A stretch of DNA of 14,650 nucleotides from a virus: UHGV virus genome UHGV-0042153; one strand, 5' to 3'. Below, piece after piece: positions 1-14,650 of this stretch (the stretch's first letter is position 1; every line of letters starts with the position of its first letter). Below the pieces are notes generated by a model. It saw nothing but the letters and a program-made list of their open reading frames with translations, was not told where the DNA came from and ran no database searches. The position numbers and the translations under genes were made by a program.

Positions 1-1149
1 TTGCTCCATGCTGGCACGAGGAAGATAAGGCAATCCCCAGTCGGTGTTGATAACCGCCCTGAGTGTTTCTTCGCTTCCTGTCGCTTCATACTCCTGTTCT
101 GCAGTCAGTAATTTGTAAACCAGTTGCGCCCAGGTCTGATACGCAGCAGCTGGCCCTTCCATCCAGAAACTGGCGATACGGGAGCGGCGCGGTTCACCGG
201 AAACGTTGCCGTTACGATCAATGACCTGACCTTCACGCAACCAGACTCCTGCACTATTGAGCTCACGCTTTTTCTCCGCAGTGATAATGCCGCTGCAGTG
301 CGGGCAAAGTAGATACGCCGCCTCACTGGCTTTAAAGGGATCCGGTTCATTACGGTAGCCGGTCATGGCATCCATGGCTGGCTGAAAATATTCACCGCAG
401 TGCGGACATGACCAGTACCAGCGGCGGCGGTCACCACGATTGTAAAGGGAAAGAATACCAGTCGTCGGTGGCGCTTCATGAGGCGACTTACGTCGCCATT
501 TGCTGTCGCAGATGTCACGTCCCGGCGAGCTCTCCACCAGAGTCATCCCGGCGGACATAAATGTGGTGGTACGTTTTGAGGCCAGGGAGAAACCATCACC
601 CTCGCTGTCGATATTCTCCGGAAAACGGTCGTAATCGGTTAAGGCGACAAACCGGTAATCCGACGACGACATAATGTTGACCGAGGGCCAACCAATTTTA
701 AGGAACGAGCCATCCCTGAACGTCTTATCATGGACATTATTGTCGTTACGACGTGGACTCATTCTTTTCTTTACCGCCGCACTGCTTCTGAACGTTCTGT
801 CGAGGCGCTTTTTAGAATGCTCGCGGGCCTTATCTTCGGTCATCTGCACAACGAGCATGTCCGAAGGATCGCAAACGATGGTATAGACAATCCATCCATC
901 GATCAGACCAATGGTCTTCCCTGTTCGCGCAGGACCAACAAAAATCACCGCATCGTATTCACGCGATGCCAGGCAGTTCATGGGCTCAATGATGTAGGGT
1001 GTCAGTTCAGGATCCCATGGCACCGAGTTACCAGCCCCCTTGGGAACACGCATGAATTTTTTAACAGCCTCCGAAATCGGCATGCGACGTGGTGGGGAAA
1101 ATCCTGCCGATATGTCCCTTCCCAAATTTCGGGCTGATGAAAAACCCAT
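1..1149 (-). CDS. Terminase large subunit (lambda gpA-like), N-terminal 383 codons; C-terminus lies beyond the window start
   Basis: Manual minus-strand translation from ATG at 1149 (GGAGG 6 nt upstream) is open to position 1: MGFSSARNLGRDIS...VGPARTGKT (Walker A P-loop)...CPHCGEYF...CPHCSG. Not in the ORF track because its stop is outside the window. Start sits 9 nt after the small-subunit stop. Confidence 0.85.
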   Translation of the reverse strand, partial: MGFSSARNLGRDISAGFSPPRRMPISEAVKKFMRVPKGAGNSVPWDPELTPYIIEPMNCLASREYDAVIFVGPARTGKTIGLIDGWIVYTIVCDPSDMLVVQMTEDKAREHSKKRLDRTFRSSAAVKKRMSPRRNDNNVHDKTFRDGSFLKIGWPSVNIMSSSDYRFVALTDYDRFPENIDSEGDGFSLASKRTTTFMSAGMTLVESSPGRDICDSKWRRKSPHEAPPTTGILSLYNRGDRRRWYWSCPHCGEYFQPAMDAMTGYRNEPDPFKASEAAYLLCPHCSGIITAEKKRELNSAGVWLREGQVIDRNGNVSGEPRRSRIASFWMEGPAAAYQTWAQLVYKLLTAEQEYEATGSEETLRAVINTDWGLPYLPRASMEQ

Positions 1150-1157
1150 TATTCCTC

Positions 1158-1685
1158 CTAGAGACTCTCTCCTTCCTCATCAGGAATTAATTCAGCAGCA
1201 CAAGCCTCGTAGGATTTTTCCTGAAGAGTGTATCGCAGGTCATCAATTGCCTGCTGTACAGCGCCGACGGCCTGAGGAGTCAGGGCGCAATCGCGTTCAA
1301 GAACATCCGGAATTGTCTCCAGAACCTGGACGACAGCCTTTCTCATGGACGAATAGACGATGACTACTTCATCAACGGGGATGAGTTTTCGCTGCTCCTT
1401 TTCCAGCTTGATCCTTTCATTTTCAGACTGGTACCAGTCCTTTCTCTCTTTCGGCTCCATACGGGATGGATCATGAACAGAGTCTGCTGCCTCATGCTTC
1501 ACACTAAACAGGGCTGGCCCGACATGCTGCAGGGCGTAAACGGGGTTCCCCCTGACAGTCGCAGCCACAGGAGTGTTGGCCGCGAGAAGCCGTTTTTTTA
1601 CTGTGTCCCGGTGAAGCCCAAAGGCCTCAGCGATTTTAAAAACACTCCAGTAATAAGCATCACCGATCCCGCTCACATTTGACAT
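1158..1685 (-). CDS. nohA: Terminase small subunit (lambda Nu1-like)
   Basis: Track ORF 1158..1715; I prefer the internal ATG at 1685 (MSNVSG..., GGAG upstream). N-terminal helix-turn-helix-like segment (IAEAFGLHRDTVKKRL) and acidic C-terminus as in Nu1; lies directly upstream of the large subunit and about 185 nt from the cos-like site. Confidence 0.8.
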   Translation of the reverse strand: MSNVSGIGDAYYWSVFKIAEAFGLHRDTVKKRLLAANTPVAATVRGNPVYALQHVGPALFSVKHEAADSVHDPSRMEPKERKDWYQSENERIKLEKEQRKLIPVDEVVIVYSSMRKAVVQVLETIPDVLERDCALTPQAVGAVQQAIDDLRYTLQEKSYEACAAELIPDEEGESL

Positions 1686-1864
1686 AAGCAACTCCATCTG
1701 GCAGGTGAAAATCATGTTTATTTATATATTTCAATTAATTGTAAACTGGTCTAATGACAGGGAGAAAAAAATATTGTACAGGTAAAAAGAGAAATAACTT
1801 TTAATTATCAATAAATTACCAAACATGCTGCCGCCGCCATGGAAATGCAAAAACTAGCCTTTTT

Positions 1865-1885
1865 CCGCGACGCTCCCGCCCCGTG
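1865..1885 (-). other. cosN-like cohesive-end site
   Basis: Minus-strand reading CACGGGGCGGGAGCGTCGCGG resembles lambda cosN (ACG GGGCGGCGACCT CGCGG, from memory) and sits at the lambda-like distance upstream of the Nu1 homolog, with an AT-rich stretch (candidate IHF/cosB) between them. Confidence 0.45.
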
Positions 1886-1910
1886 GCAGGGGCCCCCACC
1901 GGGAGGACCC

Positions 1911-1934
1911 GACAGCCTGACAGCCTGACAGCCG
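1911..1934. repeat. Three tandem copies of an 8-bp unit (GACAGCCT GACAGCCT GACAGCCG) next to the cos-like site
   Basis: Direct reading of the sequence. Confidence 0.7.
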
Positions 1935-2257
1935 TGACGAGCATCTGATACAGCGCTTTACATAATGGCATAGGAATAATTCAGAAGGACATCACAGCAT
2001 GCCCACACAAATTAGTGTGAGTGTCCTGTTTCTTCCTACGCACAGGACTGACGAGCATGAGGGGAAAATATGCGAACCATAAATGCCTCATCTTCAGCAA
2101 TGCAGCCGGCATCCGAACAGGACGATATTGTAAATTCACCTAATTACGAGGACATTGCAGTAGTTGAATTGCAGCTCTGTATTAGCCTGACAGTGACAGA
2201 ATGCGATATTGACTCTGTCACAGGTGAAATAGTTTGAATGATTAGCAGTTATGGTGC

Positions 2258-2464
2258 TCAGTCAACCACCAGGGAATAATCCTTCGAATTCTTATCGTGC
2301 TTCACCAACGCTGCCTCAATTGCCCTGAATGCTTCCAGAGACACCTTATGTTCTATACATGCAATTACAACATCAGGGTAACTCATAGAAATGGTGCTAT
2401 TAAGCATATTTTTTACACGAATCAGATCCAACGAGAGTTCATCAGCAGATTGTTCTTTATTCAT
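2258..2464 (-). CDS. Small hypothetical prophage protein (YnfO position)
   Basis: Track ORF, 68 aa, ATG with GGAG about 9 nt upstream; position matches ynfO in the recalled Qin order. Confidence 0.55.
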
Positions 2465-2764
2465 TTTGTCGCTCCATGCGTTTGCTCGTCATCTAGCGGT
2501 TAAAATATTACTTCAAATCTTACTGCATAAAAGAGGAAAAGTATGAAAGTTTGAGTACATCGACCTTACATACATCTGTCGGTTGCATATCCCTCCTGGA
2601 TGCCAGCAAGGCTCAATTTTGTTACGCAATCAACACTATTCATTAAAAACAGGCTTAATATTTGACATAAATCATCAACAAAACACAAAGAGGTCAGACC
2701 AGATTGAAACAATAAACACGATAATGCAAACTACGCGCCAGCGTATCACATGGAAGGTTTACCA

Positions 2765-3208
2765 ATGGCTCAGGCTGCCATTTTTAAAGAAATATTCGAT
2801 CAAGTGCGTAAAGATTTAAACTGTGAATTATTTTATTCTGAGCTAAAACGTCACAATATCTCACTTTATATTTACTATTTAGCCACAGATAATATTCACA
2901 TTGTGTTAGNNNNNNNNNNAGATAATATTCACATTGTGTTAGAAAACGACAACATAGTGTTAGTAAAAGGACTCAAAAAGGTTGTAAATGTTAAATTCTC
3001 CAGAAACAAACATCTTATAGAGACCTCCTATAATAAGTTGAAATCAAAAGAAATCACATTTCAACAATACAGGGAAAATCTTGCTAAAGCAGGAGTTTTC
3101 CGATGGGTTACAAATATCCAGGAACACCAAAGATATTACTATGCCTTTGATAACTCATTACTATTTACTGAAAGCATCCAGAAAACTACACAGATCTTAC
3201 CACGCTAA
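2765..3208 (+). CDS. ydfO: YdfO-like (DUF1398) prophage protein; reading frame passes through a 10-N gap
   Basis: Track ORF 2750..3208; I prefer ATG 2765 ([11 protein letters not shown]..., GGAAGG upstream). The gap plus a 23-bp duplicated flank adds 33 nt in frame (DNIHIVL-XXXX-DNIHIVL). Confidence 0.65.
2887..2942. repeat. Identical 23-bp sequence (AGATAATATTCACATTGTGTTAG) on both sides of the first N run
   Basis: Direct reading; typical of an unmerged contig overlap or an assembly break in a tandem repeat. Confidence 0.8.
2910..2919. other. Assembly or masking gap (10 N)
   Basis: Run of n characters. Confidence 0.95.
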
Positions 3209-3359
3209 ACCATAACGTCCGGCTTCTCTCACTCCTGAGCCGGACTGCATTGGTTTAATAAAAACCATCAACAATTGTGATTTAGATATTCGGAACCATT
3301 CAAATATAACAAAACCCCGTAAAAACGAGGTTTATGGATAAATTTTATTATTGAATACA

Positions 3360-3533
3360 TCAGATTAAATTAATCTTGACATCATAGCTTTCAAGACCCG
3401 TCATTTTTTCCCGTGCGGTAAACTGAATACTGGTAACTTCTTTCCCGGTCTTTTTCTTAAGTTCAATAATTTTTTTTGTTATATATTCAGAAATATCTGC
3501 TTCTGCTTTTGTTTTTAAGTTTTCAATATTCAT
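3360..3533 (-). CDS. gnsB: GnsB-like small protein (57 aa)
   Basis: Below the track cutoff; manual translation MNIENLKTKAEADISEYITKKIIELKKKTGKEVTSIQFTAREKMTGLESYDVKINLI with AGAGGA upstream of the ATG; matches the GnsA/GnsB family as I recall it and the gnsB position in Qin. Confidence 0.7.
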   Translation of the reverse strand: MNIENLKTKAEADISEYITKKIIELKKKTGKEVTSIQFTAREKMTGLESYDVKINLI

Positions 3534-3704
3534 CGTTTCCTCTTTTAGTCTGTTATGACTTTCCAGTTACACAGTAAGTCGATTATATGGTGCAAACGTG
3601 TAAAAGATAAGATGAAACATCGCAATAATCAACATACGATAGTCTAAATTTTACACAAACAGACAAAGAGAATTTTCCTGAATTATCAATACAATAGCAT
3701 CAAA

Positions 3705-3935
3705 TCAACTCAAGAGCCTTATTGCTGCTTCCAGAATTTCTTCTGAAGTAACATGTCGATCCGCGGCTACATAAATGACTTTATGATCTCCGGTCAGAGA
3801 TGGAAACCCTGCGGCCATTACAGTAAGGTGTGTTTTTTCGCCATTTGGATATTCACGCATGATGGTGTTAACTCCAGTCATCGCTGGCACTACCACTGCT
3901 GGTTCAGAGTTAAAAAAAACTATGATTTTTTTCAT
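3705..3935 (-). CDS. Hypothetical small protein (YnfN position)
   Basis: Track ORF 3705..3977 begins at TTG; the internal ATG at 3935 (MKKIIVFFNSEP...) is more plausible because the TTG overlaps a terminator. Weak RBS; assignment is by position only. Confidence 0.4.
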   Translation of the reverse strand: MKKIIVFFNSEPAVVVPAMTGVNTIMREYPNGEKTHLTVMAAGFPSLTGDHKVIYVAADRHVTSEEILEAAIRLLS

Positions 3936-3979
3936 GATGTTACCGTAGTATGTGAGTATCCATCGAATAGATACCAAGC

Positions 3980-3999
3980 AAAAAAGCTCCCGAAGGAGC
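3980..3999 (-). terminator. Intrinsic terminator-like hairpin downstream of cspI
   Basis: GCTCC-CGAA-GGAGC stem-loop followed by a U-run on the minus strand. Confidence 0.4.
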
Positions 4000-4206
4000 C
4001 TTCATTTTCACTTTTTTAAATCCAACGACAGACGGCTGGCATTTAAGTATTGTGAAATATTATCAAATGTAATCATCATTGATTTACAAAAGATACATTT
4101 TGCCCCGAAAGGATTCATGTCAGAAACATCAAAAGATGATGTTCTATACTGGGAACCATGACAACACGGGCATCTAAAGTGAATATGGTTTGTAATATTG
4201 TCTACC

Positions 4207-4419
4207 TCAAAGCGCCACTACATGAACAGCGGCAGGACCTTTAGGTCCGTTCTCAATACCAAATTCAACTTCCTGATTCTCAGTTAATGTTTTGAAATCG
4301 TTGCTCTGAATTGCTGAGAAATGGACAAACACATCTTTGCTGCCATCTTTCGGCGTGATGAAACCAAAACCTTTTTCAGGGTTAAACCATTTCACTAAAC
4401 CAGTCATTTTGTTAGACAT
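4207..4419 (-). CDS. cspI: Cold-shock protein, CspA family
   Basis: 70 aa; RNP1 KGFGFI and RNP2 VFVHF motifs; sequence matches CspI as I recall it. Confidence 0.9.
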
Positions 4420-4782
4420 AATTATTACCTTTTGAAGAAATTAGCCCTTGGGCAGAATGGTCCGAAAAAAAATATCAGAGAGAAAAACCAACAAGGAAAT
4501 CTCAAGAGGTACAAATAATAAAATTATAACAATGACTGCTTCAGATAAATTTGTAACAAACCAGAACACCATTAACGCATGATTAACCACCCATAGCAAG
4601 GATTACTTTTGTAAAGAAAAACACAGCAATGAAAGAATAGCTTTATTTATTAATAATAACGTGTCATTCTGATTAAGACCTTTTATCTTACCCTTAAGAT
4701 TTCAGGAATTTTGGCTCATGGAAGAGTCCTTTTTATTTAAATTTTACATTCCGCGATGTAAATGTTCCGATTTAATATTACC

Positions 4783-5806
<1,024 letters not shown>

Positions 5807-5810
<4 letters not shown>

Positions 5811-6118
5811 ATATATTTATGATGAGGACGCTCGTGCTTATTGGCAGGATTTTCAATCTTAAAGGAGTACTGATGCTGCAGATAAGACTCAACTTTTTCT
5901 GACAATTTTTCTGCTACTTCCAGGAAGACTTGCCGGACGCTCCTTCTGGCTGCTGCCTCATAAAACTCCAGCGCAGCTCCTTCAACACGGTCCATGGCGA
6001 CATCCAGGTCAAAAATTTCACCGTCAAAGCGTTTTTTGTCCCGTAACGCTAAAGTTACCGTAACTTTATTCTCAAAATTGCGGATCCCTTTCACAATCAG
6101 TTCATAGTTTTGAGTCAT
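5807..6118 (-). CDS. ydfR: YdfR-like (DUF1327) protein between holin and endolysin
   Basis: 103 aa, GGAGAG RBS; position matches ydfR in Qin. Confidence 0.7.
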
Positions 6119-6122
6119 TGAA

Positions 6123-6338
6123 TTACTCTCCTCTCGCAGCCTTACGCCTGTCTTCTTTAATCTTGAAATAAAGATTTGTCAGATACGTCAGCAGGCCAAA
6201 AACCAGGCTACCCAGCACACCGATTGCAGCCCACTGTGACGGAGTTACTTTATCGAGTAACTGCAATGCCCAGAAACCAGCATTACCCGCCGATGTGCCA
6301 TAGGCAACACCTGTTGTTAACTTATCCATTGATTTCAT
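6123..6338 (-). CDS. essQ: Class II pinholin (phage 21 S-like) with dual-start motif
   Basis: Track ORF trimmed to [10 protein letters not shown]... (71 aa); Met1 and Met4 dual start, two transmembrane segments, basic C-terminus [11 protein letters not shown]. Confidence 0.85.
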
Positions 6339-6557
6339 ATCCTCACCCCGATGTACACGGATGGTGCAATATGTTTGAAAAGATCGGAGTCTACGGGGTA
6401 GTTTTGACAGCACACGTTGTTCTCAACGGCGCTAAAAAAACATACACATTAAAAATGTGGGTAATTATTTTGAAAGAAAATCATATATAAAATAATAATA
6501 CGAGAAATGTTTTCATATTTAGTGTACTGTATACGGCCATTTATACAGGAAAAGCCT

Positions 6558-6728
6558 ATGTCAGAACGTAAAGACTCAAAATCACGCCGTAATTATCTCG
6601 TTAAATGCTCCTGCCCAAACTGCACCCAAGAGTCAGAACACAGTTTTTCAAGAGTACAAAAAGGTGCCCTTTTGATCTGCCCTCATTGCAACAAAATATT
6701 CCAGACAAATCTTAAAGCTGTAGCCTGA
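6558..6728 (+). CDS. Small zinc-ribbon protein (56 aa), possibly YnfU-like
   Basis: Internal ATG of track ORF 6507..6728 with AGGA RBS; two Cys pairs, CSCPNC and CPHC, about 20 residues apart. Confidence 0.5.
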   Translation: MSERKDSKSRRNYLVKCSCPNCTQESEHSFSRVQKGALLICPHCNKIFQTNLKAVA

Positions 6729-6784
6729 TTGATTTTATTAGTAACAAGTATTTTTTATATTTTAATAATATATTTAAAGCAGAT

Positions 6785-6809
6785 AATAAAAAACCCGCCT
6801 GAGCGGGTT
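6785..6809 (-). terminator. Intrinsic terminator (minus-oriented)
   Basis: AACCCGC-CTGA-GCGGGTT hairpin followed by a U-run on the minus strand. Confidence 0.5.
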
Positions 6810-7090
6810 TGAGATTGTGGTGCTTTTTGTGGGAGTCATCCACTTACGCACTTTGTTTTGCCATGCCAGCAGTTAGCTTCTGCTGTAAAACTATTCATGC
6901 AGCAAACCTGCACTTCACCACAATGGTTAGCATACTTTTCCTGATTAAGGTTTTGCCAAATATGCTGGCCATTGTTTCATGTATTGGACCTCCTTATTTT
7001 TATTAAAGAGATCCAATATTCACTACTCTGTCCGTATCTCTACTCAGGCATCAGCCTTCTTCGTTATCGTATACAGACGAGCGATGAATT

Positions 7091-7306
7091 TTAATCAGTA
7101 ATGATGACATTTGCTGCTGCAGGACCTTTAGCACCACTCTCTATAGAGAAGGTAACCTTTTGACCTTCAAATAAGGTTCGATAATTATCATTCTGAATCG
7201 CAGAAAAATGCACAAACACATCTTTACTACCATCAACAGGAGAAATAAAGCCGAAACCTTTATCAGCGTTAAACCATTTTACTAAACCAGTCATTTTATT
7301 TGACAT
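7091..7306 (-). CDS. cspB: Cold-shock protein, CspA family
   Basis: 71 aa; KGFGFI and VFVHF motifs; matches CspB as I recall it. Confidence 0.9.
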
Positions 7307-7606
7307 TCTACATTCCTTAACTTGAGCCTTTCGGCATAAATGGTTTGCATAACAGAAACGACTTCGTACTTAATTGGAGAGACTCAAAGAAGGAATAAGT
7401 GAATAACACCTGAAATGAGAACTGCTTTAGTAAACTACTTCGTATATCGTCTGTTCTTCAAACCGACGCAATCATTAACGCATAGTTGAACATATGAAGC
7501 AATGTTTATTTTAGACATCCAGCCATCTTCAACCCCATCAAAAAACTATAGCTTTCTTCAGGAACGTGTGTATAGTGCGCCAAGTTATCAGTATTAAGGA
7601 ATTTTT

Positions 7607-7819
7607 TTGTCCCGTAAAATGACAGGAATTGTCAAAACCTTTGACGGCAAAAGCGGCAAGGGTCTTATCACCCCATCCGATGGTCGTATCGATGTCCAGC
7701 TTCATGTTTCAGCGCTCAATCTCCGCGATGCAGAAGAAATTACCACCGGATTACGCGTGGAATTTTGCCGGATAAATGGTCTGCGTGGCCCTTCAGCTGC
7801 CAATGTTTACCTTTCATGA
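7607..7819 (+). CDS. cspF: Divergent cold-shock-domain paralog (CspF/CspH type)
   Basis: 70 aa beginning [10 protein letters not shown]; TTG start at 7607 with AAGGA 6 nt upstream; the aromatic RNP1/RNP2 residues are replaced ([16 protein letters not shown]). Confidence 0.8.
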
Positions 7820-7873
7820 GCTATATTAAAGCTTTAATTTCAGGCCCCATCGGATCACACATGGAGAGTTTTT

Positions 7874-7963
7874 ATGAATAACCCCGTCTGTCTTGATGAC
7901 TGGATGATTGGCTTTAAAAGCTTATGCTGTACTTTGGCCGTAATAGCTCTGCTAATAATATAA
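7874..7963 (+). CDS. Candidate 29-aa hydrophobic peptide
   Basis: ATG with GGAGAG upstream; [29 protein letters not shown]. No other support. Confidence 0.2.
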
Positions 7964-8112
7964 TAAGCAGACTCATTGTGTTTAGGGACATTGTACTGGA
8001 AGAAAACATTTTAAACATCAGGCAAATAACCAAGTCACCAGCTAAATAATAAGTTAACAGACATGAGTCCCGGGATGAGATTCAACATTACCATTGCCCC
8101 ATTTAAAGCACA

Positions 8113-8147
8113 AAACCCGCTCATCAGCGGGTTTTCTACTTTTTCTT
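8113..8147. terminator. Intrinsic terminator, usable in both orientations (cspF terminator and candidate tR')
   Basis: AACCCGC-TCATCA-GCGGGTT hairpin with a T-run on the plus strand and a shorter U-run on the minus strand. Confidence 0.5.
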
Positions 8148-8180
8148 AACGTCGGGTATACAAAGCCCATCGTTGAAAAA

Positions 8181-8209
8181 ATTTTATCCATATTTTTTGA
8201 AAAATGCAA
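8181..8209 (-). promoter_or_regulatory. Candidate late promoter (PR'-like) just downstream of quuQ
   Basis: Minus-strand TTGCAT, 17-bp spacer, TAAAAT; predicted start about 65 nt upstream of the hairpin at 8114-8133. Confidence 0.35.
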
Positions 8210-8240
8210 ACATCATGTCGCCATCTTCAGCAAAAATCAT

Positions 8241-8993
8241 TTATCTCGTCACCTTCCTCAATTGCGCTTCCGCGTATGCTTCTTCCTGCCAGCACTTTGT
8301 TACCAGTTTACCAATGACGTCCGCATACCCCTTATACCACTGATAATCGGTCAGGTCTGGTACCAGCTTCTGGACATGACGTCGTGCCAGCGTGGTCGGT
8401 AAACGACTAAACCGGTTTCCATTACAACGCCCACAAATCTTATATACCGGTACGCCATGAAACCGGGTTCTTTTTTCATCCAGAACAATCCCTTTACCCT
8501 TACACCCTCTGCACGCTGTGCTGACTTCGCCCTTACCATGGCAATGCTGACATAGTTCCTTCACCCATTCTTCCTTGATTACAGATTCCCCGCGTCTGTA
8601 GTGTTTCACCACTTCGCGCAATACATTATAAAATCCCGTACCTGAACAATGCTCACAGCGAGCCTTACTTGCCGCAGACCTGGAGTAATCAGCAAAGGCA
8701 AAACTCACGAGGTAAGGAATAATCTGTAACCGGATTTCTTCACTCAATTTGTTCAATGTCGGGTTATCCAGTGCCATCGCGTAATTTAGCAGGCCTTCAA
8801 TCGCAAACTGAGGGTCCTGAACACCAACTTTTGCCAGAAATAAGGCCAACCCAAGTGGTGCTTTCGACTGCACCATCCCCTGCGCTGCCATTACATCCGT
8901 AATTGTTAAACAACCGGTGCCTGTCGCTGGAGCGTCATCGCTCAATTTTGGAGATTTTGGGGAGTAATATTTTGGTAAGGCTTCAAGGTTCAT
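8241..8993 (-). CDS. quuQ: Late-gene antiterminator Q, lambda type
   Basis: Track ORF trimmed to ATG 8993 (GGAG upstream); strong resemblance to lambda Q (YSPKSP...TDVMAA...FAFADYSRSAA...CxxC zinc-finger pairs). Confidence 0.85.
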   Translation of the reverse strand: MNLEALPKYYSPKSPKLSDDAPATGTGCLTITDVMAAQGMVQSKAPLGLALFLAKVGVQDPQFAIEGLLNYAMALDNPTLNKLSEEIRLQIIPYLVSFAFADYSRSAASKARCEHCSGTGFYNVLREVVKHYRRGESVIKEEWVKELCQHCHGKGEVSTACRGCKGKGIVLDEKRTRFHGVPVYKICGRCNGNRFSRLPTTLARRHVQKLVPDLTDYQWYKGYADVIGKLVTKCWQEEAYAEAQLRKVTR

Positions 8994-9006
8994 GCTCGTT
9001 CTCCAC

Positions 9007-10095
9007 TTACGCCAGTACGCCAATTGCCAGCGCGCGATCGATAAAACGAAATATCAGCTCCAGTTGGGAGCCATACTTCTCTTCAAATGCCACTGTATCC
9101 GTATGCAGCTCGTTGTGATGCTTTCTGCACAAAGGCAACACAAAGAGATCATGTGCTTTTGTTCCCATTCCGCCCTGCCCGTGACCAATCAGATGATGCG
9201 GATCGTCGGCTGGCATACCGCAGCAAGCACACGGCTGTGTCTTAACCCAACGTGTGTATTTCTCCTTAACCCAGCGGCGACGTTTAGGCAGCTTCATGAA
9301 AGATTCCGGAGACTCTGGATCAACGGTGATGCTTACCACCGTCTTTTCCTGTGGTGGTTTTTGTTGCTGGTAGGCGTAAGGCAACGGTGCAAGATTTTTT
9401 GTGCGTTGTTTCAATATGCTGGTGGCGGTCTGCTCTCCCGGTACGATGTCGCTTTCGCGGTACACCGAGCAGATTTTTTCCGCTGGTAATCCCAGCGAAC
9501 GACGCGATACAGCCTCAGGTAGTGCATCCACCACCTGATTGCAGACCGCCCACCAGGATAATTCAGCCAAAGATAATTCCCGCTCCTGCGTACCGCTTAT
9601 TGCGTGACGGATGACGTCAATCACCCATGCTGTCAGATTTTGTTGAGCAAGCAGATCCAGTGATTCCGATGTCTGGTCACGCAGTTGGTTGTCGCAGTGC
9701 CAACACAACACCATTGCGCCGGTACCATAACGGTGAATGACTGTTTCAGAGTGATGGTAATCGCCATTAGGCCACTGGCAGGATGTAACATGACGTAATA
9801 GCCAGTCAGACAATGCGCCAACGCCGCCAGCAGCACGAATCACCCGTTCGTTACTAAAAAACGGCAGCAATGTTTTGTCTTCCACCAGCGGCTGGCGAAC
9901 GGCAGGAACGACTCCGGATGGCAGATTACGCATGCTTTTTGGTTCCGGTTCCACCAGCACTCGAGGATTATGAAATATCTGTATGGATTCACGGCCCGGC
10001 TTAAGGACCACCAGCCCAAGCTCAGGCACCAGAACAGGTCTAAGTAATACCCGCACGTTACCTCCAGATCCGTTGCTGGAAAGTGCGGGACGCAC
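9007..10095 (-). CDS. ydfU: DUF968-type nin-region protein with C-terminal HNH-like Cys/His cluster
   Basis: 362 aa, GTG start; motif QPCACCG...DDPHHLIGHG...CRKHHNELH; position between rem and Q as in Qin. Exact start uncertain. Confidence 0.8.
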   Translation of the reverse strand: MRPALSSNGSGGNVRVLLRPVLVPELGLVVLKPGRESIQIFHNPRVLVEPEPKSMRNLPSGVVPAVRQPLVEDKTLLPFFSNERVIRAAGGVGALSDWLLRHVTSCQWPNGDYHHSETVIHRYGTGAMVLCWHCDNQLRDQTSESLDLLAQQNLTAWVIDVIRHAISGTQERELSLAELSWWAVCNQVVDALPEAVSRRSLGLPAEKICSVYRESDIVPGEQTATSILKQRTKNLAPLPYAYQQQKPPQEKTVVSITVDPESPESFMKLPKRRRWVKEKYTRWVKTQPCACCGMPADDPHHLIGHGQGGMGTKAHDLFVLPLCRKHHNELHTDTVAFEEKYGSQLELIFRFIDRALAIGVLA

Positions 10096-10336
10096 GTGGT
10101 GGGCGTTCGGAGTAAGGCAATCTGACTGAGATTATCCAGTGACGGTAGTCGAGGCTAAGGGCTTTCTTAACCTCGTATCCGCGCCTGCGGTAACACTGAA
10201 TTATCCATTCAGCCTGCTCTTCAGTGCATGGAGGGTGTTGGAACCATTCAGACTTGAATGCGTGAGAATACCGCTCGTGCGTGCAGACAAGAACGGGCGA
10301 ATTATCAGAATTGTAATATTTTACGTTGCGTGCCAT
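10058..10336 (-). CDS. Conserved small phage protein (92 aa) overlapping the DUF968 start
   Basis: ATG with GGAG RBS; a paralog at 14010..14282 shares most residues and the same overlap arrangement. Confidence 0.55.
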   Translation of the reverse strand: MARNVKYYNSDNSPVLVCTHERYSHAFKSEWFQHPPCTEEQAEWIIQCYRRRGYEVKKALSLDYRHWIISVRLPYSERPPRASRTFQQRIWR

Positions 10337-10402
10337 CGGTTTTCTCCGGTGGCACGGTGTTACTCAGCGGGAGTTCAGCCCCGCGCAAGATTGTAGATGA
10401 GT

Positions 10403-10654
10403 TTATTCTTCTGCAAAAGCTGAAAAGCCTGCTTTTATTCCGATCTCTTTCAGTGCCTGTAATGAAGTGACAAACTCACCTTCGCGCAAGATAAATCCGT
10501 CCGTGACTCGAGCATCCACAAAATTAATTAACGCAGCCCCATTCTTTCGCAAACACAGAATGCGGTAATGACTAACAATGTTTCCATTTTCAACGCACAC
10601 AGCATAGAGGCCATCTTCACAAAAAATTTTACGCAGTTCTTCGATGTTCATCAT
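10403..10654 (-). CDS. rem: Rem-like small protein (83 aa)
   Basis: ATG with GGAAGG RBS; length and position match rem in Qin; function unknown. Confidence 0.65.
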   Translation of the reverse strand: MMNIEELRKIFCEDGLYAVCVENGNIVSHYRILCLRKNGAALINFVDARVTDGFILREGEFVTSLQALKEIGIKAGFSAFAEE

Positions 10655-10770
10655 CAGAATCCTTCCGGATAATTAACTCTCCCCTTTAAGGGACCATCCC
10701 TCTTATCCCTGCGCGCTACTTAAGTATTTTTGATTCTATTCCGGCACCGTCCAGAACTTCAAACGCGTTG

Positions 10771-10802
10771 AAAATAAAAACAAAAACCCGCCGAAGCGGG
10801 TT
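10771..10802 (-). terminator. Intrinsic terminator (minus-oriented) immediately left of gap 2
   Basis: AACCCGC-CGAA-GCGGGTT hairpin followed by a U-run on the minus strand. Confidence 0.5.
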
Positions 10803-10812
10803 AAGTGCGGGT

Positions 10813-10822
10813 NNNNNNNNNN
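10813..10822. other. Assembly or masking gap (10 N)
   Basis: Run of n characters. Confidence 0.95.
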
Positions 10823-10999
10823 TTTGAAATACAGGTTAGTCAGATATGTCAGGAAGCCCAGAACCAGACTCCCCAGTACACCAATCGCAGCCCACTGTGA
10901 CGGACTGACCTGATCAAGCCACTGTAAAAACCAGTAGCCAGCACTGCCTGCGGAGGTGCCGTAGGCAATGCCCGTTGAAATTTTATCCATGGATTTCAT
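10823..10999 (-). CDS. Second S21-like pinholin, truncated at its 3' end by gap 2
   Basis: [59 protein letters not shown] then N run; GGAGGTGAGG RBS; the track ORF's N-terminal extension (GTG 11098) is not credible. Confidence 0.7.
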
Positions 11000-11136
11000 A
11001 GCCTCACCTCCGCAGCGAACGGATGGCGTAGTTATAAGGGGAGCGAAAAAGAAAGAATGCGCGATTGCGCAATATGGTAACGTCAGGGTATTATCCACTG
11101 GCTGAATAGATCACTTCACGTTTTTTGTTCCTTGCC

Positions 11137-11164
11137 GCCCGTATCCATATGCGGGCTTTTTTTT
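11137..11164 (+). terminator. Intrinsic terminator (plus-oriented)
   Basis: 8-bp stem GCCCGTAT/ATATGCGGGC with 4-nt loop followed by eight T. Confidence 0.45.
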
Positions 11165-11170
11165 GCATGT

Positions 11171-11200
11171 AAAAAGGCCCCAACACATGTGCGTGGGGCC
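11171..11200 (-). terminator. Intrinsic terminator (minus-oriented) between the tRNAs and the holin
   Basis: GGCCCCA/TGGGGCC stem followed by a U-run on the minus strand. Confidence 0.45.
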
Positions 11201-11440
11201 TGAGAGTATACATGGTTTCAGTCAACTGCATGGTGCCGGGTGCCTCCCGGTGAATTCAGTACCAGCACCTGAATCCGCGATTATCCCATATACCTACTCG
11301 CTGATTGCCCCTCCGCACAGGGGGATTCACCATGCCAGTTTCTTTTAACAAACTCCCCGCAAAACAGACAACTGTCAACCGTCTGAATTGTGAGACATTT
11401 AAAAAAAAGGCCCGCAAAAGCGAGCCGGGAAAAATAAGTC

Positions 11441-11517
11441 TGGCGCGTTGTACTGGATTCGAACCAGTGACCGATTGCTTAGAAGGCAATTGCTCTGTCC
11501 GGTTGAGCTAACAACGC
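11441..11517 (-). tRNA. tRNA-Arg, anticodon TCT
   Basis: Manual fold: 7-bp acceptor stem GCGTTGT/ACAACGC, D-arm GCTC...GAGC, anticodon loop CTTCTAA, T-loop GGTTCGAATCC, encoded CCA. Confidence 0.85.
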
Positions 11518-11530
11518 AGGGTACAGATAA

Positions 11531-11607
11531 TGGACCGCCATCGAGGACTCGACCCCCGCGCAACCAGCTTCGAAGGCTGGTGCTCTATCCTGATGAGCTA
11601 ATGGCGG
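11531..11607 (-). tRNA. tRNA-Arg, anticodon TCG
   Basis: Manual fold: acceptor CCGCCAT/ATGGCGG, perfect anticodon stem CCAGC/GCTGG with loop CTTCGAA, encoded CCA. 5' end could be offset by 1 nt. Confidence 0.75.
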
Positions 11608-11614
11608 TATGTGA

Positions 11615-11690
11615 TGGTGGCCCTTGCTGGATTTGAACCAGCGACCTGGCGATTATGAGTCGCTCGCTCTCACCTCTGAGCTAAAGGGCC
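11615..11690 (-). tRNA. tRNA with anticodon CAT, ileX-like (tRNA-Ile2 type)
   Basis: Acceptor GGCCCTT/AAGGGCC; anticodon loop CTCATAA; closely resembles E. coli ileX as I recall it. Ile versus Met cannot be settled from the fold alone. Confidence 0.8.
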
Positions 11691-11810
11691 GGGCGCAGGA
11701 TAATAACGTTACGAAATCAATGTTGCAAGCATTCAAAAATCACCTGGTTAAAAATCACCCTTAGCTCCTCCACCAGCGCATTCACCATGTCTATCCGAGA
11801 TAAGTGGCAC

Positions 11811-11848
11811 AAAAAAACCCGCTTGTGGGCGGGTTTTGTTTGCTTTTG
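11811..11848. terminator. Intrinsic terminator usable in both orientations (candidate tR' for the second Q module)
   Basis: AACCCGC-TTGTG-GCGGGTT hairpin flanked by an A-run and a T-run. Confidence 0.5.
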
Positions 11849-11888
11849 CCATCACGTACAAAATCGGCAAAATATCAGATTTGCATGA

Positions 11889-11917
11889 AATATATGCCTT
11901 TCAATCTACTTTTGCAA
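11889..11917 (-). promoter_or_regulatory. Candidate late promoter (PR'-like) overlapping the 3' end of the second Q-like gene
   Basis: Minus-strand TTGCAA, 17-bp spacer, TATATT; predicted start about 65 nt upstream of the terminator at 11811-11835. Confidence 0.35.
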
Positions 11918-12590
11918 CACTTTGCTTTGAAAATGCCGCCTTTTGTTTTGAACGTGTTCTCATTACAAACAATAAAGCCTCACTATCCAGTCGTTGAAAA
12001 ATGTGTTTCATTGCAACCCAGTGACGAGTAAATGTTTTGGACCAGTTTTTAGTTGTCACTCCCGCCAGTAATGCCAGCTCCTGGTATTCATAACCTTCCC
12101 CACCAAAAAGTTCTGCTTTTACTGCCTGCGCCGCCAGCCAGATTAATTTTTTCAGGCGTTCCTGCGTTTTCCCTGCAATTTTTCTGGTACCGGATTGAGT
12201 ATTAAATTCATTCCACGCCCACTGTGTTATCGCGATCTGATATTCCCAACAAATACTCTCGCCGTAACACCACAACAACCAGGCTTTATGATGCTCTTCA
12301 AGAGACAGCAAAGCCCGCCGCCATGATGATGTCGAAAACTCAACCGGGCTGACCAGGGCAATTGATGAGCCATTCGCCAGTGATTGTTTTCCCGGGATTG
12401 GTGGATTATCCCGCGTTATCATTTTTCCAGTCACTTCATCGCGGTACCGGATTTTTTTTCGCCTGTAACGCCCTGTATCGAACATGGCATTCTCCTGCCA
12501 GGCTTCAAGCTGACCTTTTGTTGCCCCACTCAAATCAGCGGTGGCGATAATGAGCTGCTCACGCACAAACTGTAAATACTGGTTATTCAT
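11901..12590 (-). CDS. Putative second late antiterminator (Q-like by position); family not recognised
   Basis: 229 aa from ATG 12590 (GGAG upstream, ATGA overlap with rusA stop); sits between RusA and a promoter/terminator/tRNA/holin arrangement. No similarity to lambda Q visible by eye. Confidence 0.5.
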   Translation of the reverse strand: MNNQYLQFVREQLIIATADLSGATKGQLEAWQENAMFDTGRYRRKKIRYRDEVTGKMITRDNPPIPGKQSLANGSSIALVSPVEFSTSSWRRALLSLEEHHKAWLLWCYGESICWEYQIAITQWAWNEFNTQSGTRKIAGKTQERLKKLIWLAAQAVKAELFGGEGYEYQELALLAGVTTKNWSKTFTRHWVAMKHIFQRLDSEALLFVMRTRSKQKAAFSKQSVAKVD

Positions 12591-12946
12591 GCGCACTCCA
12601 GTTCTGTGATTTTTATCCCCAGCCGCCCACCAGGAACGAGCTGACCGCGCACAATATTGATTTCATCAAACTGCTCGTCGTCTATGAGAAGTCCGGCATG
12701 CGTCAGCGCATCCAGTGGTGCTTTCAGGATATTGTCCAGGTCACGACGGCGCTTATCCGGTGGCTCTGCAATAATTTTTATTGCCAGCCGTCCGGACAGG
12801 CTTAATTTCAGCCGCTGCTGGCGAACAATAAGCGCCACAGCCCGGCGATAACGCTTTCCCTCCTCCGAGATAAAATATGTGCTGCCACGGCGTCGCCAGT
12901 AAGTGTTCACCGTCGGCGGGTAAGGTAAAACCAAATCTATGAGCAT
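12587..12946 (-). CDS. rusA: RusA-family Holliday junction resolvase
   Basis: 119 aa; PDKRRRDLDN and LDDEQ acidic motifs typical of RusA; AGAGGTGA RBS. Confidence 0.85.
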   Translation of the reverse strand: MLIDLVLPYPPTVNTYWRRRGSTYFISEEGKRYRRAVALIVRQQRLKLSLSGRLAIKIIAEPPDKRRRDLDNILKAPLDALTHAGLLIDDEQFDEINIVRGQLVPGGRLGIKITELECA

Positions 12947-12958
12947 CAGTCACCTCTT

Positions 12959-14080
12959 TTACCCGAGCACGCCAGTTGCAAAGGCGTGATCAAGAAAACG
13001 AAAAATTAAATCAACCTGAGAACCATGCTTTTCTTCGAACGCCAGAGGATCCGCATGAAGCTCGTTGTGATGCTCCCGACACAGCGGTAGCGTGAAAATA
13101 TCGTGAGATTTTGTCCCCATTCCGCCCTGACCATGACCAATCAGGTGATGGGGATCGTCGGCTGGCTTACCACAACACGCACACGGCTGTGTCTTCACCC
13201 AGCGTGTGTATTTCTCGTTAACCCAGCGGCGACGTTTAGGTCGTTTCATGAAAGATTCCGGAGACTCAGGATCAACGGCAATGCTGACCACCGTCTTTTC
13301 CTGTGGTGGGTTCTGTTGCTGGTGGGCGTGAGGCAGCGGCGCAAGATTTTTTGTGCGCTGTTTCAGTATGCTGGTGGCGGTCTGCTCTCCCGGTACGATG
13401 TCGCTTTCACGGTACATTGAGCGGATTTTTTCCGCACGCAACCCCAGCGAACGACGTAATACCGCTTCCGGTAGCGCGTCCGCCACCTGATTGCGGACCG
13501 CCCACCAGGATAATTCAGCCAGAGATAATTCACGCTCCTGCGTACCGCTTATTGCGTGACCGATGACGTCAATCATCCATGCTGACAGGTTTTGATGAGC
13601 AAGTTGCTCGAGTGATTCGGATGTCTGGTCACGCAACTGGTTGTCGCAGTGCCAGCACAACACCATTGCGCCGGTACCATAACGGTGAATGACGGTTTCA
13701 CTGTGGTGATAATCACCGTGTGGCCACTGGCAGGATTTAATATGGCGCAACAGCCAGTCAGACAGTGCACCAGCGCCGCCAGCAGCACGAATCACACGCT
13801 CATTGCTGAAAAATGGCAGTAATGATTTATCCTCCGCCAGCGGCTGGCGAACGGCAGGAACGACCCCGGACGGCAGATTACGCATGCTTTTCGGTTCAGG
13901 CTCCACCAGCACTCGAGGGTTATGAAATACTTGCATGGATTCACAGCCCGGCCTAAGGACCACAAGCCCGAGTTCCGGTACCAGAACAGGTCGAAGTAAT
14001 ATCCGCACGTTACCTCCAGATCCGTTGCTGGTATGTGCGGGATGGGCGCGGTGGGCGTTCGGAATAAGGGAGCCTGACAT
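12959..14080 (-). CDS. DUF968-type protein, second copy (paralog of 9007..10095)
   Basis: 373 aa; same HNH-like motif (QPCACCGKPADDPHHLIGHG...CREHHNELH); most positions identical to copy 1 with scattered substitutions. Confidence 0.8.
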   Translation of the reverse strand: MSGSLIPNAHRAHPAHTSNGSGGNVRILLRPVLVPELGLVVLRPGCESMQVFHNPRVLVEPEPKSMRNLPSGVVPAVRQPLAEDKSLLPFFSNERVIRAAGGAGALSDWLLRHIKSCQWPHGDYHHSETVIHRYGTGAMVLCWHCDNQLRDQTSESLEQLAHQNLSAWMIDVIGHAISGTQERELSLAELSWWAVRNQVADALPEAVLRRSLGLRAEKIRSMYRESDIVPGEQTATSILKQRTKNLAPLPHAHQQQNPPQEKTVVSIAVDPESPESFMKRPKRRRWVNEKYTRWVKTQPCACCGKPADDPHHLIGHGQGGMGTKSHDIFTLPLCREHHNELHADPLAFEEKHGSQVDLIFRFLDHAFATGVLG

Positions 14081-14282
14081 AGATTATCCAGTGACGATAA
14101 TCGAGGCTGAGGGCTTTCTTAATCTCGTATCCGCGTCTGCGGTAGTTATGAATTAGCCATTCGGCCTGTTCTTCAGTACATGGTGGGTGTTGGTACCAGT
14201 CGGTTTTAAATGCGTGTGAACGCCGCTCATGCCGGATGGCAAGGTCGGTATCAGAATTGTGAAATTTGGTTTTGTGCGCCAT
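14010..14282 (-). CDS. Conserved small phage protein, second copy (paralog of 10058..10336)
   Basis: 90 aa; shared C-terminal half HPPCTEEQAEW...YRRRGYE[VI]KKALSLDYRHWII.VRLPYSERPPR. Confidence 0.55.
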   Translation of the reverse strand: MAHKTKFHNSDTDLAIRHERRSHAFKTDWYQHPPCTEEQAEWLIHNYRRRGYEIKKALSLDYRHWIIYVRLPYSERPPRPSRTYQQRIWR

Positions 14283-14354
14283 CTGTTTTCTCTGCTGGCG
14301 CAGCAGGTGTCAGGTGTTCAGGCTGACGTGCGAATTGTAAACCAGAATGCCAGG

Positions 14355-14381
14355 AAAAAACAAAACCCGCCGAAGCGGGTT
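14355..14381 (-). terminator. Intrinsic terminator (minus-oriented) downstream of hok, immediately left of gap 3
   Basis: Same AACCCGC-CGAA-GCGGGTT hairpin as at 10785-10802, followed by a U-run on the minus strand. Confidence 0.5.
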
Positions 14382-14391
14382 AAGTGCGGGT

Positions 14392-14401
14392 NNNNNNNNN
14401 N
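14392..14401. other. Assembly or masking gap (10 N)
   Basis: Run of n characters. Confidence 0.95.
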
Positions 14402-14437
14402 GATGCACTCACTGGCGGTCACTGAACAACGGGTCTC

Positions 14438-14593
14438 TTACTCCTCATGTTCGTAAGCTGTGAAGACAGCGGCCTCCGTCTGGCCGGTTCGGATTCGTAC
14501 CCCCCAGAGGTCTTTCCTCGTTACCAGTGCCGTCACAATGACGGTTAAACAGATGACGATCAGGGCGATTAACATCGCCTTTTGCTGCTTCAT
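14438..14593 (-). CDS. Hok/Gef-family type I toxin (51 aa), HokD/RelF-like
   Basis: Internal ATG of track ORF 14438..14650 with GGAG RBS: MKQQKAMLIALIVICLTVIVTALVTRKDL...; single transmembrane helix; an overlapping upstream frame (mok-like) starts at the window edge. Confidence 0.8.
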   Translation of the reverse strand: MKQQKAMLIALIVICLTVIVTALVTRKDLWGVRIRTGQTEAAVFTAYEHEE

Positions 14594-14650
14594 AGCCTGC
14601 TTCTCCTTGCCTTTCGGCACGTAAGAGGCTAACCTACATGTGTCTAGCAT

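Follow-up and report, generated by a model that had tools for sequence, protein, structure and literature searches.

Layout of the Scaffold

The 14,650-nt stretch of virus genome UHGV-0042153 analysed here (the window) contains runs of N, two of which follow the same hairpin sequence, and this raises the question of whether the segment between them belongs to the same prophage as its neighbours. In total, there are three such runs, each exactly 10 N long, at positions 2910–2919, 10813–10822 and 14392–14401 (gaps 1, 2 and 3, respectively). The window is probably a scaffold of four short-read contigs with conventional 10-N spacers, the likely contig bounds being 1–2909 (A1), 2920–10812 (A2), 10823–14391 (B) and 14402 onward (C). 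One well-known assembler writes gaps of less than 10 bp as 10 N, although a literature search on this point yielded no usable paper. The reading favoured here, with a probability of about 0.9, is that segment 10823–14391 originates from a second prophage and was misplaced by assembly at a shared hok terminator, and that the arrangement is an artefact rather than new biology.

At gap 1, the flanking 23 nt are duplicated (2887–2909 = 2920–2942) and no sequence is missing. The corresponding site in the closed genome of E. coli MS 85-1 is continuous and carries a single copy of AGATAATATTCACATTGTGTTAG; compared with MS 85-1, gap 1 adds 33 bases to the window (23 duplicated and 10 N). In some collections, stretches of sequence are masked with N, and the N runs could in principle be masked bases inside a continuous genome rather than contig boundaries. 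However, all three runs have exactly the same length, the 23 nt duplicated at gap 1 are single-copy in the closed genome, and the sequences on either side of gap 2 are separated by 510 kb there, so that masking has a practically negligible probability.

The Repeated Hairpin

The 30 nt AAAACCCGCCGAAGCGGGTTAAGTGCGGGT that precede gaps 2 and 3 are identical (10783–10812 = 14362–14391). The preliminary description had pointed to this identity and quoted 28 nt, two fewer than observed here. The likeness of the copies reaches about 6 nt further leftward, with a one-base difference in an A run. The repeat gave two matches in the window versus none in 200 shuffles, even with three mismatches allowed. 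The first copy forms the end of A2, and the second that of B.

The hairpin previously noticed before both gaps is real. It occupies positions 10785–10802 and 14364–14381 on the minus strand and consists of a 7-bp stem (AACCCGC/GCGGGTT) and a 4-nt TTCG loop. Read on the minus strand, AACCCGC-TTCG-GCGGGTT is followed by a T run, either TTTGTTTTT or TTGTTTTTT (at about 10775–10784 in the first copy), and the scan marks both copies as terminator-like, whereas no T run was found on the plus strand of the hairpin. The folding energies of the two copies are −12.8 and −13.8 kcal/mol. A G+C-rich stem-loop with an immediate T run is the hallmark of an intrinsic (rho-independent) terminator, and, in closed genomes, about 95 nt separate the hok stop codon from the hairpin, which lies downstream on the same strand as hok. 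Judging by these features, the hairpin that closes the hokD cassette at its 3′ end is a predicted intrinsic terminator and would end the hok mRNA. Hairpin and hok are present in both of the MS 85-1 prophages described below (94.7% identity over 435 nt), and the median number of hok places per closed genome is two.

The Qin-like Prophage

Window positions 1–10812 (A1 and A2, together A) correspond to one continuous Qin-like prophage block of MS 85-1 at 2.464–2.475 Mb, with five mismatches and the 33-nt insertion at gap 1. This part of the window is colinear with the MS 85-1 order cspI ... essD, cspB, cspF, ydfT (Q), ydfU, rem, hokD, and thus shows the gene order of a Qin-like lambdoid prophage (P1). 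The last gene of A2 is rem (10403–10654, minus strand), which maps onto rem WP_000980983.1 of MS 85-1. There, P1 runs contiguously from rem through the hairpin and 51 nt to hokD, with a KwaB-like gene beyond hok. Within ydfR of A2, three bases at 6034–6047 (6034, 6042 and 6047), lying between 31-nt and 84-nt stretches identical in both prophages, are of the type found in the second prophage (P2), which suggests that paralogous P2 alleles were mixed into A2 at ydfR.

The Second Prophage

Contig B matches MS 85-1 positions 2,985,828–2,989,396 with 100.0% identity over all 3,569 nt (0 mismatches). This locus is a different lambdoid prophage, 510 kb from A, where B is flanked by the remainder of the holin gene (followed by YdfR and lysozyme) on one side, and by the hairpin, hokD and QueH on the other. 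In strain 20KM2222, A and B are likewise found at separate loci. The earlier proposal that 10823–14391 comes from a different prophage is therefore borne out by both genomes.

All features of B are on the minus strand. It begins with a truncated class II holin gene (10823–10999), comprising exactly 59 whole codons that correspond to residues 1–59 of WP_000839574.1, while 12 codons and the stop are missing. The break is thus inside the gene at a codon boundary, and not in mid-codon as had been described. Further along are a match to the STnc100 sRNA family (11165–11364; 140 bits versus a gathering score of 47), three phage tRNA genes (11441–11690; Arg-tct, Arg-tcg and one with a CAT anticodon, which is tRNA-Ile according to RefSeq), the antitermination protein Q gene (11901–12590; WP_001064896.1, 100% DNA identity), the RusA Holliday-junction resolvase gene (12587–12946; WP_000904096.1), a DUF968 protein gene (12959–14008), which shares 84.5% DNA identity with the P1 ydfU copy at 9007–10056, and a gene for a hypothetical protein (14010–14282; WP_001323868.1). 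The second prophage of MS 85-1, at 2.98 Mb, has a late-control module (DUF968, RusA, Q, tRNAs, holin) that agrees with B in its gene order and in its right-end hairpin; there is no difference inside the contig, and its placement in the window alone differs.

Junctions in Complete Genomes

Junctions were counted in 5,426 complete E. coli genomes. The preliminary description had named two arrangements that would speak for the scaffold as deposited. One of them, rem and its hairpin adjoining this holin, was found in none (0/5,426). The other, hokD following the second DUF968 module, occurs in 2,118 of the genomes; it is true of the other prophage, yet it does not rescue the scaffold order. Adjacency of rem and hokD, expected beforehand from the Qin order, holds in MS 85-1 and in 2,782 of the 5,426 genomes. 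Since the rem–hokD and DUF968–hokD adjacencies are both real, each contig is legitimately followed by its own hok copy. The genomic matches for both adjacencies are about 50 nt longer than the corresponding joined query. In a search with the whole window, no record covered more than 84% of it in one place, and the best single places span about 11.05 kb, which equals A plus C without B. On these junction counts (0, 2,782 and 2,118), gap 2 is, as far as genome comparison can tell, a false adjacency of two prophages.

Had the scaffold order been right, the window would represent a recombinant prophage with a second late-control module (the partial holin, tRNAs, Q, RusA and DUF968) placed after rem and before hokD, and each gap would hide no more than a few bases. 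The contigs were indeed placed in this order by the scaffolder, lambdoid prophages are mosaic, and two hok terminators could act as recombination sites. Recombination at these terminators, however, would give rem–hairpin–hok or DUF968–hairpin–hok, and not hairpin–holin. Besides the lack of the hairpin–holin adjacency among the complete genomes, the holin gene would be cut after codon 59 at a junction without homology, and the two parts lie 510 kb apart in a near-identical closed genome. Such a recombinant is thus extremely improbable.

hokD and the ccmF Fragment

Gap 3 is followed by a 30-nt exact piece of chromosomal ccmF (14402–14431, plus strand), which is foreign to the locus and meets hok via a 2-nt CG overlap (junction 14431/14432). 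As a single-copy gene, ccmF is present in 5,419 genomes. None of the closed genomes searched has the junction, the exact junction was not found in the viral contigs scanned, and a 28-mer scan of species-representative genomes returned ccmF loci alone. The possibility that C begins with an inverted copy of neighbouring sequence was rejected, as no match was found in the window or at either prophage locus. Three points had been missed in the preliminary description: the ccmF stub with the probably erroneous bases at the start of C, the overlapping flanks of gap 1 (23 nt) and the codon-boundary break of the holin gene.

Contrary to the earlier statement that only the 3′ end of hok lies to the right of gap 3, C contains the complete hokD coding sequence (14438–14593, minus strand; 51 codons), with only 8 nt of the 3′ untranslated region. 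About 51 nt of this region are replaced by gap 3 and the ccmF stub, and this sequence is missing whichever contig truly adjoins on the left. The window hokD is 97.7% identical to annotated hokD at the DNA level. Compared with WP_000813254.1, its product carries four substitutions, P49H (14447), V42A (14471), E32G (14501) and C31W (14503); all of the underlying changes are nonsynonymous, and they are found at most 72 nt from the ccmF junction and within about 100 nt of the contig end. None of the closed-genome hok copies has these changes. In the CCCCCC variant test, performed with megablast and aligned across mismatches, the best full-length identity was 96.5%, and both variant bases mismatched in every genome. 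The exact variant Hok sequence was also absent from protein records.

With its length, the coding sequence agrees with a toxin of about 50 codons, and it matches the NCBIfam Hok family with an E-value of 2.2e-9, albeit below the curated cutoff (37 vs 73 bits). Conserved residues and a 3′ untranslated region that are both intact characterize hok/sok, and the window shows neither. The antisense Sok RNA and the overlapping mok reading frame would lie upstream of hok, where the window extends by 57 nt, and no Rfam match to such a locus was obtained in the window. In comparison with the hokD (relF) cassette of the E. coli Qin prophage, where rem, terminator hairpin and hokD of 51 codons follow in this order on one strand, as in MS 85-1 and the 2,782 genomes, the window cassette is broken by gap 3, has a 3′ untranslated region that is shorter by about 51 nt, and carries four substitutions seen nowhere else.

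It could be argued that the ccmF–hok junction and the four Hok substitutions are real and represent a decayed hok beside a disrupted ccmF, given that the junction stands in the deposited sequence and that its CG microhomology is of the kind that illegitimate recombination can leave. A real junction with single-copy ccmF would nevertheless run far into that gene instead of ending in a stub of exactly 30 nt. In addition, neither the junction nor the substitutions occur in any closed genome, the changes, all nonsynonymous, are crowded near the contig end, and elsewhere the window shows just five differences from MS 85-1 in 10.8 kb. A decayed hok is accordingly highly improbable, and it is most likely that the substitutions and the 3′ loss are errors of assembly and not features of the genome. 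There is similarly very little chance that either a hybrid prophage carrying tandem pairs of Q antiterminator and DUF968 genes exists or the ccmF–hok junction is a real chromosomal rearrangement.

As to the origin of C, it is of the P1 (Qin) type at seven of the eight sites that distinguish P1 from P2, including all six in 14633–14650, and P2 of MS 85-1, WP5-S17-ESBL-10 and LAU-OXA all differ from C across this stretch. The visible upstream diagnostic stretch is 18 nt long, after which the window ends, and a single base (14536) is of the P2 type. Because of the agreement at seven of the eight sites, C most likely belongs to P1 and follows rem, as the preliminary description had supposed, with some uncertainty between P1 and P2. 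The competing view holds that B is from P2 but gap 3 is a true adjacency, C being the P2 hok and the hok that follows rem lying elsewhere in the assembly. It would be in keeping with the P2-type base at 14536 and with the B hairpin and subsequent hokD in P2 of closed genomes, whereas the seven P1-type sites contradict it; both copies may also have been collapsed into one consensus in C, which would leave no clean answer. Overall, a true adjacency at gap 3 appears unlikely.

Probable Origin of the False Join

We infer the true layout from near-identical closed genomes, and not from the source strain itself. The source genome would contain at least two lambdoid prophages, with A1, A2 and most likely C derived from the Qin-like P1, and B derived from P2. 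In the early-right region of each, there would be a hokD toxin cassette ending in the same terminator hairpin, and the cassette would thus constitute a repeat. The assembler may have stalled at this repeat, leaving A2 and B to end exactly 30 nt into it, and a scaffolding or contig-ordering step may then have strung A2, B and C in one line. The true order would be rem, hairpin, about 51 nt and hokD, while the proper place of B would be about 0.5 Mb away, with the rest of the holin gene and the lysis genes on its left and its own hairpin and hokD on its right.

The marks by which a false join is recognized were found here, namely, fixed-length spacers (the three 10-N runs), contig ends in multi-copy sequence (the repeat occurs twice in the window, and hairpin and hok in both prophages), flanks at different loci in a closed near-identical genome (MS 85-1), and a junction missing from closed genomes. 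As in short-read de Bruijn-graph mis-scaffolding at a collapsed repeat, the window combines fixed N spacers and two contigs that end 30 nt into a multi-copy element with a junction found in no closed genome, mixed paralogous alleles and a chimeric stub at a contig end. A de Bruijn-graph assembler with k = 31 is suggested by the 30 nt that A2 and B share at their ends and by the 30-nt ccmF stub of C, both of which equal k − 1. The first ~102 nt of C may go back to a single chimeric read with errors, or to a few of them, as the spacing between the four mismatches and the junction stays below 31 nt and leaves no correct 31-mer there.

The value of k rests on these two 30-nt coincidences and does not account for the gap-1 overlap, which is 23 nt rather than 30, or for the left end of B. 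Moreover, the DUF968 genes of A2 and B have stretches of 42 and 38 nt in common without any mismatch, yet no contig break is found there; a plain k = 31 graph is therefore not the whole story, and reads must have resolved short repeats. The left end of B was considered as a P1/P2 repeat boundary, but this was rejected, because B starts 30 nt past the end of the nearest exact match (84 nt) and not 30 nt ahead of it. Either a third prophage copy or partial merging of similar paths may explain this end.

Implications

Reading 1–14650 as one prophage is unfounded, and this applies to the two holins, two Q genes and two DUF968 genes, to the tRNA cluster downstream of rem and to any operon that bridges the gaps. 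Sequence within ~100 nt to the right of gap 3 is unfit for use, and errors most likely underlie both the apparent Hok variant without its conserved cysteine and what looks like a ccmF fragment. The relevance of these results is confined to the correct reading of the window; the biology behind it, the recurrence of a hokD cassette with its terminator in several lambdoid prophages of one genome, each time in the early-right region, is already known.

Gaps in the Sequence and Placement in Closed Genomes

The window is interrupted by three N runs, each 10 bases long (2910–2919, 10813–10822 and 14392–14401; gaps 1, 2 and 3), which separate the pieces A1 (1–2909), A2 (2920–10812), B (10823–14391) and C (14402–14650). 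When the window was searched in full against 5,426 complete E. coli genomes, coverage at a single place did not exceed 84% in any record; the best places extend over no more than about 11.05 kb, corresponding to A (A1 plus A2) and C without B. The best record was E. coli MS 85-1 (NZ_CP146650.1), where window 1–10812 aligns as a single block with five mismatches and one alignment gap, caused by 33 additional bases in the window. The flanks of gap 1 (2887–2942) carry a 23-nt duplicate, AGATAATATTCACATTGTGTTAG, which is present as a single copy, with no bases missing, in the closed genome. As the 33 surplus nucleotides consist only of the 10 N and this duplicate, gap 1 hides nothing, and A1 and A2 overlap by 23 nt.

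According to the annotation of MS 85-1, the region matching A is a Qin-like prophage (P1) with the order terminase, cspI, rzpQ, rrrQ, ydfR, essD, cspB, cspF, ydfT (Q), ydfU (DUF968), rem and hokD; from the hairpin that follows rem to the hokD stop codon there are 51 nt plus the stop-proximal bases. Two cspA-type thermoregulator leaders were found in A2 on the minus strand (4180–4565 and 7075–7467); they lie upstream of cold-shock genes of the prophage, which in the closed genome are cspI and cspB.

All 3,569 nt of B match MS 85-1 at 2,985,828–2,989,396 with 100.0% identity, 510 kb from the place of A. This second lambdoid prophage (P2) has the order lysozyme, YdfR-family protein, class II holin, three tRNAs, Q, RusA, DUF968, hypothetical protein, hairpin, its own hokD and QueH. 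B is also found at 100% identity in five further closed genomes; the hairpin and hokD follow its end in both of the two whose region was fetched, and in strain 20KM2222 A and B lie apart, as in MS 85-1. The earlier proposal that 10823–14391 belongs to a different prophage is thus supported by the separate locations of A and B in these two strains.

The holin fragment that opens B (10823–10999, minus strand) comprises exactly 59 whole codons and lacks a further 12 codons and the stop; the break falls on a codon boundary, and not in mid-codon as was previously described. The STnc100 sRNA family is matched over its full length (140 bits) at 11165–11364 on the minus strand, between this holin and the tRNA genes. 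The tRNA with a CAT anticodon at 11615–11690 (minus strand) is assigned to Met by ARAGORN, and the identical gene of MS 85-1 to tRNA-Ile by RefSeq.

The Repeat at Gaps 2 and 3 and Junction Tests

Gaps 2 and 3 are preceded by the same 30 bases, AAAACCCGCCGAAGCGGGTTAAGTGCGGGT (10783–10812 and 14362–14391), which bears out the preliminary description, the identity being two bases longer than quoted there. With up to three mismatches permitted, the repeat matched twice in the window and not once in 200 shuffles. It contains a hairpin with a 7-bp stem and a 4-nt loop, reading AACCCGC-TTCG-GCGGGTT on the minus strand and followed there by a T run, which is absent from the plus strand. Both copies were detected by the terminator scan, with folding energies of −12.8 and −13.8 kcal/mol. 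In closed genomes, the hairpin is on the same strand as hok, about 95 nt downstream of its stop codon and beyond a second strong stem-loop. From its sequence and position, we infer that it is a predicted terminator of the hok transcript and probably bounds the hok cassette on the left, where P1 and P2 would begin to resemble each other.

The junctions were examined with joined queries of 400 nt (200 nt per side), counting the genomes that carry both halves in one place. The join of rem (10403–10654, minus strand) and its hairpin to the holin at the start of B was found in none of the 5,426 complete genomes, so that no case of the holin fragment directly following rem was observed; the join across gap 2 is false. 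The same rem and hairpin end joined to hok was present in 2,782 of the 5,426 genomes, and the end of B joined to hok in 2,118. Matches to both of the latter queries span 450 nt each, which, against the query length of 400 nt, indicates that about 50 nt are absent from the window. It is true that hok follows the second DUF968 module, but this holds for the other prophage, and shows only that A2 and B each legitimately precede a copy of hok.

Origin and Quality of the hok Segment

For assignment of the hok copy, C was aligned with three loci of the Qin type and three of the P2 type. Within its range, eight sites separate the two types in MS 85-1, and C is Qin-type at seven of them (G at 14432 and all six in the last 18 nt, 14633–14650) and P2-type at one (14536). 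Thus, judging by these sites, C is most likely the neighbour of rem, as had been suspected; alternatively, the P1 and P2 hok copies may have been partly collapsed into one consensus in this piece. Just past the right end of the window in MS 85-1 (L001 17401–19040), hokD of P1 is followed by a gene with the annotation Kiwa KwaB-like anti-phage protein and a hypothetical gene; in P2, QueH comes directly after hokD.

The entire hok coding sequence is present to the right of gap 3, and not its 3′ end only, as was stated before. Among complete genomes, only bases 29–249 of C match hok loci, with a best identity of 97.7%. The first 30 nt of C (14402–14431) are an exact piece of the cytochrome c heme lyase gene ccmF, which occurs exactly once in 5,419 of the 5,426 genomes, and this stub is fused to the hok 3′ region via a 2-nt CG overlap. 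Such a junction was found in none of the 5,426 complete genomes. A real ccmF–hok junction is very unlikely, since a single-copy gene would give a contig reaching far into ccmF rather than a 30-nt stub.

Four bases within hokD (14447, 14471, 14501 and 14503) are found in none of the hok copies of the 5,426 genomes. Each of them alters the protein (P49H, V42A, E32G and C31W), and a run of six C arises from two of the changes. By contrast, there are five differences between A and MS 85-1 across 10.8 kb. The four bases are likely to be read errors at a contig end, and the first ~102 nt of C, in our interpretation, stem from a single read or a few reads that were chimeric and contained errors. The left end of this piece should not be relied upon.

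Possible Origin of the Arrangement

A2 and B each end after exactly 30 nt of shared identity; in MS 85-1, the identity of P1 and P2 runs 16 bases beyond these ends. In C, exactly 30 nt precede the point of departure from ccmF. Both lengths equal k−1 for k = 31 and would suit contigs of a de Bruijn graph ending at a convergence and at a branch, respectively. From the ccmF junction through the four odd bases of C, no interval between neighbours reaches 31 nt, so 14402–14503 holds no correct 31-mer; an erroneous path of this kind would stay apart from the true one. At gap 1, the 23-nt overlap is shorter than k−1, and a k = 31 graph could not have merged A1 and A2. B may have been chained between A2 and C by read-pair links from both A2 and B to the hok contig, or by ordering against a reference that lacks the second prophage.

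A2 also carries P2-type bases at 6034, 6042 and 6047 in ydfR of P1, between stretches of 31 nt and 84 nt that are identical in P1 and P2. This looks like the merging of similar paralogous paths by the assembler; a real gene conversion is a possible explanation as well. The only other differences of A1 and A2 from MS 85-1 are at 2347 and 2375, 28 nt apart in a small hypothetical gene.

Two observations are at odds with a plain k = 31 graph. The DUF968 genes share exact matches of 42 nt (13367–13408 and 9415–9456) and 38 nt (13656–13693 and 9704–9741), at which A2 and B are unbroken, and the left end of B is located 30 nt past the 84-nt stretch shared by P1 and P2 rather than inside it.

What was initially observed is confirmed, and its interpretation is supported. 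The arrangement seen in the window is an artefact of scaffolding at a repeated element that is already known, and the biology behind it is nothing new.
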